Positions 25,960 to 47,805 of a stretch of DNA of 47,805 bases are shown here, piece by piece (position 1 is the stretch's first letter; the number at the start of each line of letters is the position of its first letter). The stretch lies in the IMG/VR virus record IMGVR_UViG_3300009537_000024, positions 1 through 47,805 of that record; one strand, given 5' to 3'. The translations under genes and the position numbers were made by a program. The notes under the pieces are model-generated. The model saw only the letters and a program-made list of their open reading frames with translations. It searched no databases and was not told the origin of the DNA. Source of the DNA: a virus.

Positions 25960-26069
25960 TGCTCGATCCTCGGCATTTTGTATGCGATCGGCCGTCAATC
26001 CTACCGCCCATCCCGCCGCGCGCCAAGAAAAATCCGCCAAGTCTTTCGACCGAGCGGAGATAGGACTTC

Positions 26070-26172
26070 CACTGCACATACGTACGTTCCCGCTCTGTAC
26101 AATACCTATAGACAATTACCTAATTTTCCTTAGGTATTCTTGAGAGAGGGAACGCACATATGTGCAATGAAT
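26070..26172. promoter_or_regulatory. AT-rich quasi-palindromic element A (inverted copy of element B); candidate promoter/operator
   Basis: 80/103 ungapped identity to the reverse complement of 30372..30474, with a perfect 27-bp core at 26099..26125. Flanked by palindromes ctgcacatacgtac and gcacatatgtgc. On the plus strand: TAGACA(26109)-16 nt-TAGGTA(26131), then purine-rich SD and ATG 26160. Confidence 0.5.
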
Positions 26173-26198
26173 GGCGCAAGTGCGCGTGGGGTGGCGGG

Positions 26199-26866: not shown

Positions 26867-27279
26867 TCGTCGTTCTCCTTATCAATCTCCACCCCGAGCC
26901 GTTCGGCCAGCGCGGGCGTGAGTTCTTCGAGTGCTTCGTGGTAGCCAGGGAATACAATTCCCGTGCCGCTGGCGTTGGACTGGTAGTAGAACCCATCCGT
27001 GAGTTCCAGGTAATCCCCGGAACCGTCGAGCTTCCTCACCGCGGCGTCGAACTCGGCTCGCGTGTCGAAACCGTACGCTTCGTGGACTTCGTCTTCCGGA
27101 ACCGGGCGCATTTCGTCGTACACTGTTTCGAGGGCTTCCTCGAAAGACTGCGCGCGTACGATCCACGTAGGGGCTTCGTAGTTCTGGTAGAGCCAGAGTG
27201 AACCGAAGCCGTTGTCGTATACGTTGACGGCGCTACCATCCACACGGGCGCCCGTTAGGCGTTCATCGTCGCGGATCAT
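26863..27279 (-). CDS. Acidic hypothetical protein (138 aa)
   Basis: Preceded by ggagaccacgcc-ATG, identical to the junction at 27617. MIRDDERLTG... Confidence 0.6.
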   Translation of the reverse strand: MIRDDERLTGARVDGSAVNVYDNGFGSLWLYQNYEAPTWIVRAQSFEEALETVYDEMRPVPEDEVHEAYGFDTRAEFDAAVRKLDGSGDYLELTDGFYYQSNASGTGIVFPGYHEALEELTPALAERLGVEIDKENDE

Positions 27280-27617
27280 GGCGTGGTCTCCTCGATGGCT
27301 TGGTCGATTGCGCGACCTATCAAGACTTTCGCGAATTCGGCCCCGGGCCAGGGCTTGTGAAAATCGCGGATGTGTTGGGCTCGTATGGCTTTCAACTGAC
27401 TGTGTGCGGCGGCCCGTCCTATCTTGCGGGCTTCGGCGCTGTCGGGAAGCGGTGCGCCATCGAGCGCGCGCAGTGTGTGCATCGCGCACCATATGCGGCG
27501 CCCGTCGGCGAGTTCGAGCAGCGTGTCGCATCCTTTGTTCCACGGTTCCCATTTTACTACGGTACCGTGATCGCCATAGTACGGATCACTTACGGCACGT
27601 CCGATGGGGATTGTCAT
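27276..27617 (-). CDS. Hypothetical protein (113 aa)
   Basis: ggagaccacgcc-ATG junction; lies downstream of hammerhead copy a. Confidence 0.6.
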   Translation of the reverse strand: MTIPIGRAVSDPYYGDHGTVVKWEPWNKGCDTLLELADGRRIWCAMHTLRALDGAPLPDSAEARKIGRAAAHSQLKAIRAQHIRDFHKPWPGAEFAKVLIGRAIDQAIEETTP

Positions 27618-27645
27618 GGCGTGGTCTCCGTTGCAATGCAATGCT

Positions 27646-27707
27646 GGCATCATCAGGCGACCGGAGCATACCCGATCGCGACGCGACGCGCGGTCGCGTT
27701 TCGCCCC
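27646..27707 (-). ncRNA. Type II hammerhead ribozyme-like motif, copy a (variant core spacing)
   Basis: GGGGC-GAAA-CGCGAC(cgcgc)GUCGCGU-C|GCGAUCGG(guaugcu)CCGGUCGC-CUGAUGA-U-GCC. Core nucleotides are present with one extra U before G10.1 and a weak stem II. The 5' end overlaps the UAG stop at 27707-27709. Confidence 0.55.
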
Positions 27708-27936: not shown

Positions 27937-28023
27937 TCACAAGACCATCGCGAGCCACACAAGGGCCGCGAAGTAACCGAGTCCGATCACGGCGAGTCCG
28001 AGTCCGCGTCCGTTGTGTCTCAT
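27937..28023 (-). CDS. Micro-ORF encoding a 28-aa hydrophobic peptide
   Basis: MRHNGRGLGLAVIGLGYFAALVWLAMVL; ATG overlaps the upstream stop (ATGA). Below the 60-aa ORF-track cutoff. Confidence 0.35.
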   Translation of the reverse strand: MRHNGRGLGLAVIGLGYFAALVWLAMVL

Positions 28024-28928: not shown

Positions 28929-28946
28929 TGGCGTGTCTCCATTGCG

Positions 28947-29020
28947 GCGTGCTGGCTCGTCAGCGGATCGGAGCATACCCGATCCGGACGCGCCCCGACA
29001 AGGGACGCGTTTCGCCACGC
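28947..29020 (-). ncRNA. Type II hammerhead ribozyme (canonical core), copy b
   Basis: GCGUGGC-GAAA-CGCGUCC(cuuguc)GGGGCGCGU-C|CGGAUCGG(guaugcu)CCGAUCCG-CUGACGA-GCCA(gca)CGC. C3-A9, G12-A14, A15.1/U16.1 and the GUC triplet are all present, and three stems pair. Confidence 0.75.
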
Positions 29021-29024
29021 CATG

Positions 29025-29264
29025 TTACTCGGCGGAAATTTGGGCGTCAATCTCGGGGTAGTCGAGGCGCATCGTCGTGAGCTTGTACAGGTCGCGCCAT
29101 TGCCGGGTGCTGTCCGGGAGCGTCGCGCCTCGCAATCGCGGCGGGCACAGCGAAAAATGCACGCGGACGGTTGCGTTGACGATGCCGGGGACTGCGGCAA
29201 CGGTGCCGACGAAGCCTTGGCCGAAGTGAATGTCGGTCTCGGGACGGTACGTTATGCGGATCAT
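29025..29264 (-). CDS. Hypothetical protein (79 aa)
   Basis: MIRITYRPETDIHFG...; ATGA coupling to the upstream gene. Confidence 0.55.
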   Translation of the reverse strand: MIRITYRPETDIHFGQGFVGTVAAVPGIVNATVRVHFSLCPPRLRGATLPDSTRQWRDLYKLTTMRLDYPEIDAQISAE

Positions 29265-47418: not shown

Positions 47419-47805
47419 AGATCTCTTAGTAGATGCGACAGAATCGCTGGACGGAGGCGCGTACCAGAATGCGCGTGTCTGGAAAGCGCCTCCTAACACC
47501 TACGCCGACGGGTACAATATAGACGTCTCGGAGGTGGGTGTCTGGAAGCGCCGCCGCGGCGTTGCCTCGCGCGGCACCTCGCCTGGGCGGTCCGGCGGCT
47601 TTATCTGGACACGCAACTCCTTGGGCACTCCGCTGCTCTGGACCATTTGGGGCAGCCAAATCTTCCGCACCACGGGCTTCGGCGAGATCGATGCCCTGCC
47701 CGTGACAAACATCACATGCTACAACCAGACCCTGCATCAGATGGTGGAGGGCTTCTATAACAACGCCGCTTTCGCAGTCAATCAATACAAGGCAATTTAT
47801 GGCTG
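47402..47805 (+). CDS. 5' part of the junction-spanning nozzle-like gene (continues at base 100 via the repeat)
   Basis: ATG 47402 directly follows an in-frame TGA and overlaps the stop of 47233..47418. The frame is open to the window end and in phase with ORF 35..1357 (47,706 is divisible by 3). Confidence 0.7.
   Translation, partial: MFPRNEDLLVDATESLDGGAYQNARVWKAPPNTYADGYNIDVSEVGVWKRRRGVASRGTSPGRSGGFIWTRNSLGTPLLWTIWGSQIFRTTGFGEIDALPVTNITCYNQTLHQMVEGFYNNAAFAVNQYKAIYG
47707..47805. repeat. Terminal direct repeat (second copy)
   Basis: Identical to 1-99. Confidence 0.95.

Follow-up and report, generated by a model that had tools for sequence, protein, structure and literature searches.

The virus genome in IMG/VR record IMGVR_UViG_3300009537_000024 (positions 1 to 47,805; the whole stretch of 47,805 nucleotides is referred to here as the window) carries two type II hammerhead ribozyme motifs on its minus strand, which bracket a block of six small open reading frames (ORFs). 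The first motif, HH1 (minus-strand 29021..28946), is the hammerhead that had been described in an original prediction made from the sequence; the second, HH2 (27706..27638, minus strand), had been missed there. Based on their sequences, HH1 and HH2 are members of one type II hammerhead subfamily, and we consider it likely that they self-cleave and split the RNA of a leftward operon. The window is a single JGI metagenome contig, and since its ends (1-99 and 47707-47805) form an exact 99-bp direct repeat, it represents a complete, circularly assembled phage genome of 47,706 unique bases (47.7 kb).

In type II hammerheads loops cap stems I and III and stem II is open (PMC3088659). Both copies have the strand order of this type: the 3' strand of stem II, GAAA, the stem III hairpin, C17, the stem I hairpin, CUGANGA and the 5' strand of stem II. 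Upon rereading, the minus-strand sequence from 29020 to 28947 proved to be exactly as transcribed in the original prediction, and the presence of every invariant core base in HH1 was verified base by base. The features of HH1, read from the sequence except where other evidence is given, are as follows.

28946..29021, minus strand: HH1, type II hammerhead (sequence, descriptor scan, covariation, and scores of 31.0 bits with Rfam RF02276 and 57.6 bits with model R2, each described below)
29021-29018 with 28949-28946, minus strand: outer helix, GGCG paired with CGCC
29017-29014 with 28956-28953, minus strand: stem II, UGGC paired with GCCA, followed by a GCA bulge
29013-29011, minus strand: G12 A13 A14
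29010 with 28988, minus strand: A15.1-U16.1 pair
29010-28988, minus strand: stem III hairpin, 9 bp (29010-29002 with 28996-28988), loop UUGUC
28989-28987, minus strand: cleavage triplet GUC, in which C17 is 28987
28987/28986, minus strand: predicted scissile bond, 3' of C17 as placed by the hammerhead numbering
28986-28964, minus strand: stem I hairpin (28986-28978 with 28972-28964), 8 Watson-Crick pairs and one G.U
28963-28957, minus strand: CUGACGA, that is C3 U4 G5 A6 C7 G8 A9
28953-28950, minus strand: tail, AGCA

The predicted position of the scissile bond follows from the assignment of 28987 as C17. Both the GUC triplet and the A15.1-U16.1 pair had been recognized previously, and the earlier stem lengths (8-9 bp for stem III and 8 bp for stem I) agree with the 9 bp and the 8 Watson-Crick pairs plus G.U found here. 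Loop I reads UAUGC with the G.U pair formed and GUAUGCU without it. The description of stem II as 4 + 4 bp around a GCA bulge is correct once the G29021-C28946 pair is added, but within 29020..28947 the count is 4 + 3. This outer helix is absent from HH2 and from other relatives of HH1 and is kept only in the metagenome contig L121, where one of its pairs has become G.U, so we regard it as a feature of the lineage and not as part of the family. The placement of HH1 between a stop codon and a start codon was also borne out, the upstream TAA being at 29027-29025 and the downstream ATG at 28928-28926.

HH2 was identified with a descriptor consisting of a stem II strand, GAAA, an A..U-closed hairpin, H (any nucleotide except G), a hairpin, CUGANGA and a second stem II strand, which in its strict setting demands stems of at least 3/7/7 bp. 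The second strict match of this descriptor lies at 27706..27638, on the same strand as HH1 and 1.3 kb downstream of it; the lengths of stems II/III/I in the descriptor alignments are 4/9/9 bp for HH1 and 3/7/9 bp for HH2. The features of HH2, again read from the sequence, are the following.

27638..27706, minus strand: HH2, type II hammerhead (descriptor scan, sequence, Rfam RF02276 at 31.8 bits and model R2 at 56.3 bits)
27705-27703 with 27648-27646, minus strand: stem II, GGC paired with GCC, 3 bp
27702-27699, minus strand: GAAA (GAA at 27702-27700)
27699-27681, minus strand: stem III, 7 bp, with the A27699-U27681 pair
27682-27680, minus strand: GUC, in which C17 is 27680
27680/27679, minus strand: scissile bond, predicted from the sequence
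27679-27657, minus strand: stem I, 9 bp
27656-27650, minus strand: CUGAUGA
27649, minus strand: extra U between A9 and G10.1
27645-27642, minus strand: tail, AGCA

HH1 and HH2 have loop I (GGGUAUGCUCC) and the AGCA tail in common and, with their leaders included, are 72% identical. Because of the presence of HH2, the single cut envisaged in the original prediction has to be replaced by a pair of hammerheads that bracket a six-gene block. There was no third or degenerate copy in the window in searches with two custom covariance models, with filters off.

Supporting the assignment of both motifs is their conservation in other viral and metagenomic sequences. Four metagenome contigs were found via the protein encoded by g1, the first gene after HH1, and not via the RNA, and each has at least one hammerhead, at the gene junctions that correspond to those in the window:

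L121: hammerhead at 655-728, just before a g1 homolog (70% protein identity)
L122: two hammerheads, at 3-76 and 1285-1356, and between them a tandem pair of g1 homologs followed by further small genes, among which are homologs of g3 and g5
L127: g5, a hammerhead at 214-275, and g1
L126: g5, then a hammerhead at 929-967 that is ended by the contig edge

L122 has the same two-hammerhead bracket as the window with a different gene content. In addition, a pattern in which only the core and loop I were fixed, all stem positions being free, retrieved L123 (a lower-G+C viral contig of 65 kb) and L124/L125, and a second pattern, in which part of stem II and an AGC tail were also fixed, retrieved L134 (a viral contig of 150 kb). 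These contigs are unrelated to the window, and their hammerheads have stems that are fully paired yet entirely different, around the same core.

Across nine distinct sequences, 99.4% of the pair cells are standard pairs, and ten of the 18 pairs change on both sides (one in stem II, three in stem III and six in stem I). The covariation score is 0.583, compared to 0.146 with shuffled partners (none of 500 shuffles reached the observed value) and at most 0.059 with slid partners. The core (C3 U4 G5 A6 N7 G8 A9 and G12 A13 A14) is invariant in all 11 aligned sequences and the A15.1-U16.1 pair is present in 9/9. The paired positions that adjoin the core (10.1-11.1 and 1.1-2.1) are formed as well. 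HH2 (U), L122b (A) and L123 (U) have one extra nucleotide between A9 and G10.1. An invariant core with stems that change in a compensatory manner suggests that selection acts on the ribozyme fold rather than on the DNA sequence or on a plain hairpin.

We also considered whether the two motifs might be chance resemblances in G+C-rich DNA. In support of this is the fact that their Rfam scores are below the curated threshold: the gathering score of RF02276 (Hammerhead_II) is 37 bits, which is an operational database threshold and not a structural definition, and at curated thresholds Rfam gave no match in the whole window. When E-values were reported instead, the covariance check that had been proposed with the original prediction returned Hammerhead_II as the top match for HH1 (31.0 bits, E 1.1e-4 on the 271-nt region), and HH1 was the best match in the whole window (E 0.02 versus all 4227 Rfam families), but below the gathering score. 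HH2 scored 31.8 bits (local E 5.8e-5) when its region was searched alone; it escaped both Rfam scans of the whole window, the E-value scan having lost it to filters. Among the relatives with the same loop, the gathering score is attained by L124 (46.8 bits) and L123 (37.1 bits) and not by L121 (31.3 bits) and L122b (33.0 bits). As L124 and L123 pass, the subfamily straddles the Rfam threshold and does not fall outside the family. Hammerheads of this subfamily are probably under-annotated, based on the fact that Rfam at gathering thresholds reports neither copy and the filtered scan loses HH2.

Three lines of evidence speak against chance. Firstly, 300 dinucleotide shuffles of the window, searched on both strands, produced one loose and no strict descriptor matches, versus two strict matches in the real window. 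Secondly, there is the covariation described above. Thirdly, a covariance model (R2) was built from L123, L124 and L134 only, all unrelated contigs whose loop and core had been fixed by the search pattern and whose stems were free, as was the tail in L123 and L124. R2 finds exactly HH1 (57.6 bits) and HH2 (56.3 bits) in the window, with E-values of ~1e-12; the next best match has 10.9 bits. The probability of chance resemblance is virtually nil and we consider this explanation effectively refuted. The identity of HH1 as a type II hammerhead, with stem II open and stems I and III capped, is supported by its core, its topology, the top Rfam match, the conserved junction, the covariation and the independent model.

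A further element of the fold is the proposed contact between loop I and the tail. As had been pointed out in the original prediction, the potential for this pairing is present in the sequence, AGCA (28953-28950) being the complement of UGCU (28975-28972) within loop I. The pairing in HH1 comprises 3 bp (GCA/UGC), and reaches 4 bp (AGCA/UGCU) only if the neighboring A-U and G.U pairs open. Its position is the usual place of a type II pseudoknot, directly after the 3-bp stem II; in most type II examples the loop I-tail pseudoknot has at least 4 bp and lies directly 3' of stem II (PMC3088659). Loop I and the tail give no covariation signal since neither segment varies within the subfamily. The contact is indirectly favored by L123 and L124, in whose retrieval the tail had been left free and which still have AGCA there. 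To this can be added a comparison of 151 parsed hammerheads (150 in IMG/VR viral contigs, plus HH1), 50 of which have a loop-tail complement of at least 4 bp, versus about 18 when tails are shuffled, most of the complements beginning 0-1 nt after stem II. The UGC(U)/(A)GCA pairing probably helps folding.

The genes around the two hammerheads are all on the minus strand, in the order u1, HH1, g1, g2, g3, g4, g5, g6, HH2 and d1.

29025..29264, minus strand: u1, 79 amino acids (aa), stop codon TAA at 29027-29025, 3 nt before the HH1 outer helix
28617..28928, minus strand: g1, 103 aa, pI 4.1, first gene after HH1, GGAGA at 28940-28936
28534-28343, minus strand: g2, ORF of 63 aa
28333-28193, minus strand: g3, ORF of 46 aa, homologs in relatives
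28196-28020, minus strand: g4, Cys-rich ORF of 58 aa
28023-27937, minus strand: g5, ORF for a 28-aa hydrophobic peptide, homologs in relatives
27925-27707, minus strand: g6, 72 aa, stop codon TAG at 27709-27707, directly before HH2
27276..27617, minus strand: d1, 113 aa, first gene after HH2, GGAGA at 27629-27625

Both HH1 and HH2 are on the coding strand. Each hammerhead starts within a few nucleotides of a stop codon and is followed by a C/A-rich spacer, GGAGA and an ATG. None of the proteins of u1 and g1-g6 has a match in Pfam, PHROG or PADLOC, and g1 and the other bracketed proteins have no sequence match in the PDB. The g1 protein is very acidic and has 51 metagenomic homologs. Its AlphaFold model is confident (pLDDT 93) and has no fold match in the PDB, its only match being to an uncharacterised protein of Burkholderia phage BcepSaruman in BFVD. 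Distant homologs of g1 occur on longer contigs (L128-L133), in two of which (L129 and L130) they are two genes upstream of an Ocr-family gene. As there is no hammerhead near the g1 homologs in L128-L133, the ribozyme is not tied to the g1 protein family.

Homologs of g3 and g5 are present in L122, L126 and L127. The g5-type gene encodes a conserved hydrophobic peptide of 26-28 residues with the approximate consensus GLGLAVIGLGYFAALVWL, and in these same three relatives its homolog lies directly upstream of a hammerhead (L122, 1205-1285; L126, ~855-928; L127, 110-196). In the window, only g6 is situated between g5 (27937-28023) and HH2. For u1, no homolog was found upstream of the hammerhead in the relatives.

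Nucleotide homology between the window and its relatives begins at the 5' edge of the hammerhead or ~10 nt before it (window, 29027/29016; L121, 645; L127, 214). The genes upstream of this point are different, namely u1 (window), unrelated ORFs (L121) and g5 (L127), and the mosaic junctions coincide with the ribozyme boundary. Based on the fact that homology starts near the 5' edge of the hammerhead and that the upstream gene differs in each contig, the hammerheads could be the physical boundaries of exchangeable early-gene cassettes. The 70-nt ribozyme and its leader would then act as a recombination linker, and new blocks would be expressed as insulated RNA. Circularisation of the excised 1.3-kb RNA is an additional possibility. 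We give this reading a small chance only.

The same homology breakpoints could also indicate that the motif is conserved mainly for a non-catalytic reason, as a repeated boundary between genes that acts as a recombination linker in the exchange of gene blocks, or as a stable hairpin pair or a nuclease site, with cleavage that is weak or irrelevant in vivo. This would be consistent with HH1, HH2 and their leaders being 72% identical repeats and with the shortness of the tertiary contact. It is difficult to reconcile, however, with a catalytic core that is invariant across 9-11 sequences in which the stems have been substituted in a compensatory manner, or with the retention of this core in unrelated low-G+C viral contigs with entirely different stems; moreover, a role as a linker is compatible with catalysis. 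Conservation for a mainly non-catalytic reason is in our opinion improbable.

Our preferred explanation remains that both motifs self-cleave. The processing role put forward in the original prediction, a cut between genes of a polycistronic RNA, matches the published proposal for such elements (PMC3088659, PMC6765202) and fits the placement of stop codons and ribosome-binding sites, the cleavage itself being predicted. Each motif would fold co-transcriptionally, with stems I, II and III arranged around the core and probably aided by the short loop I-tail pairing, and would cleave itself 3' of C17, at 28987/28986 and 27680/27679. The upstream products would terminate in the G+C-rich hairpin of stem III and carry a 2',3'-cyclic phosphate, and the downstream products would begin with a 5'-OH and a 9-bp stem I hairpin, followed by a C/A-rich leader of ~20 nt, GGAGA and ATG. 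Together, the two cuts would release a 1307-nt RNA (28986 to 27680) with the six ORFs g1-g6. The operon RNA would be converted into pieces that are separately stable and separately translated, such that the expression of each block would be insulated from that of its neighbors. For this phage, we infer catalysis in vivo, the chemistry of the ends and the effects on stability and translation. Ends of the 2',3'-cyclic phosphate and 5'-OH kind are established for the hammerhead class (PMC8782182), and hairpin and 5'-OH ends would be expected, from what is generally known of bacterial RNA decay, to slow exonucleases and 5'-end-dependent decay.

Supporting the expectation of activity is the behavior of known type II hammerheads: those in prophages cleave in vitro and in E. 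coli (PMC3088659), and those next to phage-like genes in Desulfovibrio vulgaris cleave in vivo (PMC8782182). Several observations nevertheless count against this explanation or against high activity of HH1 and HH2. Neither HH1 (31.0 bits) nor HH2 (31.8 bits) attains the 37-bit Rfam gathering score. The loop I-tail pairing has only 3-4 bp, and in a tested example the shortening of a 6-bp pseudoknot to 4 bp lowered the rate ~20-fold (PMC3088659). HH1 has the extra outer helix beyond the pseudoknot segment, and a lengthened stem II lowered activity (PMC3088659). HH2 has the U inserted between A9 and G10.1; a viroid hammerhead tolerates an extra nucleotide at the same position, where an A made cleavage moderately slower and a U made it faster (PMC3705267). 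The hammerhead fold is above the predicted minimum free energy in both copies, by 1.5 kcal/mol for HH1 and 3.2 kcal/mol for HH2. Finally, the probabilities that the ribosome-binding sites are unpaired showed no consistent change with cleavage in silico. Two other functions were rejected as candidates: cleavage-dependent unmasking of the ribosome-binding site, since accessibility was unchanged in silico, and intrinsic termination, as there is no U-tract after either stem III.

A different fate of the excised RNA is also conceivable, in which the 1307-nt g1-g6 RNA is joined end to end or spliced out to give a circular or rearranged mRNA. The joining could occur by the reverse reaction of the hammerhead, or by an RtcB-type ligase acting on 5'-OH and 2',3'-cyclic phosphate ends. 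The block is bracketed by same-strand hammerheads with an identical stem II (GGC/GCC), and because of this shared stem a complete hammerhead could be rebuilt across the excised ends from HH1's 3' half and HH2's 5' half, a possibility raised explicitly in PMC3088659. In that study, though, circular or spliced products from clustered phage hammerheads were sought and none were found. The ends would be held together by a stem II of only 3-4 bp, nothing in the sequence requires a circle, and a ligase gene was not identified among the ORFs scanned. We consider such joining very improbable.

HH1 and HH2 most closely resemble the clustered hammerheads of phages and prophages (Perreault et al., 2011; PMC3088659; RF02276), an example of which is the triple arrangement flanking ardA in Agrobacterium tumefaciens. 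Prophage type II hammerheads whose loop I forms a pseudoknot with the 3' tail are commonly found to flank genes or short runs of genes (PMC3088659). As in those clusters, the window has type II topology, the consensus core and a short stem II followed by a tail able to pair with loop I, in several intergenic copies on the coding strand that bracket single genes or short blocks of variable content in phage DNA. HH1 and HH2 differ from the published clusters in scoring 5-6 bits under the Rfam gathering score, in their fixed loop I (GGGUAUGCUCC), fixed AGCA tail and pseudoknot potential of 3-4 bp, and in the added outer helix of HH1 and the extra U after A9 of HH2. Furthermore, the activity of the examples in PMC3088659 was assayed, whereas that of HH1 and HH2 is predicted.

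The hammerheads of Desulfovibrio vulgaris studied by cyPhyRNA-seq (PMC8782182) are likewise of type II and near hypothetical or phage-like genes, with two close together, and the expected fragments, bearing 2',3'-cyclic phosphate and 5'-OH ends, were detected in cells. Unlike HH1 and HH2, they are located in a bacterial chromosome, in prophage-like regions, and outside the core their sequences are not related to those of HH1 and HH2. An extra nucleotide between A9 and G10.1, as in HH2, L122b and L123, is also a feature of the (+) hammerhead of Chrysanthemum chlorotic mottle viroid (PMC3705267, citing De la Pena and Flores, 2001). That hammerhead differs from HH2 in being of type III and in belonging to a circular RNA replicon, where it processes replication intermediates.

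The arrangement in the window can also be compared to engineered insulators. In insulators of the RiboJ type, used in synthetic biology, a hammerhead placed just upstream of the ribosome-binding site removes the upstream RNA and leaves the downstream gene with a fixed 5' end and a hairpin, whatever its context; the phage element would work in a similar manner. RiboJ itself, said to have been described by Lou et al. in Nat Biotechnol in 2012, was reportedly engineered from a satellite-RNA hammerhead of another topology. The likeness of the phage element to these insulators would be one of functional analogy only and not of membership.

The two-hammerhead arrangement is a new example of a kind of element already known from phages and prophages in 2011. 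Judged by their sequences, HH1, HH2 and their relatives are a recognisable subfamily of type II hammerheads that has the defining structural features of the type. What our analysis adds is HH2, the conservation of the g5-hammerhead and hammerhead-g1 junctions, the mosaic breakpoints at the ribozyme edge and the miss of both copies by default Rfam searches. Phage hammerheads have been catalogued for 15 years, and reviews still call their biological role undefined (PMC6765202). The locus is a clean and compact case, with exactly two ribozymes and a six-gene block in a complete genome of 47.7 kb. Because relatives keep the ribozymes at the junctions and the genes vary, it is a reasonable test bed for studies of whether cleavage governs mRNA stability, translation or cassette exchange.

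The phage itself is without a close relative in a set of 50,697 deposited phage genomes: the relatives of its major capsid protein are all distant (35% identity at most), and megablast and blastn searches of the hammerhead region against annotated phage genomes gave no match. IMG/VR searches seeded with the g1 and terminase proteins also returned no relatives. The plus strand encodes the terminase, portal and major head proteins, and among the minus-strand genes are those for a family A DNA polymerase and a PD-(D/E)XK nuclease. Both hammerheads are within the leftward (minus-strand) operon, which starts in a divergent region near 32.1-32.8 kb and continues through many small ORFs to the replication genes. 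This position, and the fact that no integrase was found among the ORFs scanned, make the labels "early" and "lytic" used in the original prediction plausible, but only that.

A sigma-70-like site upstream of HH1 (TTGACG-17-TAACAT, 29050-29022, minus strand; 9/12 match) was rejected as a promoter candidate, as it is not conserved in L121. It ends 1-2 nt before the HH1 outer helix and would put a start site inside stem II; the match is probably fortuitous.

Elsewhere in this G+C-rich genome, a gap between minus-strand genes contains a long, nearly perfect palindrome with an A+T-rich center (26068-26172), which first surfaced as a spurious Rfam miRNA match. The 141-nt stretch that includes it (26050-26190) has a predicted RNA fold of -65.7 kcal/mol (z-score -9.4). 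The palindrome may serve as an origin of replication or as a binding site for a protein, or may form a large RNA hairpin.

A broad bacterial distribution of the subfamily was considered and rejected: of 26 matches to the loop-plus-core pattern in 185,579 species genomes, 24 are due to chance and only two are hammerheads, both of them in a Spartobacteria metagenome-assembled genome (MAG). Fourteen of the 24 chance matches are in one conserved protein-coding motif of gut Firmicutes. There the pattern, GGTATGCTC...CTGATGAGCCAGC, falls within a single conserved coding gene, and the motif was read by eye as PGGMLSNLMSQL; the gut Firmicutes MAGs with this coding pattern are L135-L139, L146, L148, L149, L154, L155, L157 and L160. 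Its recurrence in this gene is a caution that short hammerhead-like patterns can be coding sequence.

Lastly, other IMG/VR contigs contain type II hammerheads that attain the Rfam gathering score and lie in very dense arrays: L118 has ten (in ~14 kb), L120 nine, L016 eight (6.1 kb), and L037, L053 (4.2 kb) and L094 seven each. In some of these array contigs the density is approximately one ribozyme per gene.

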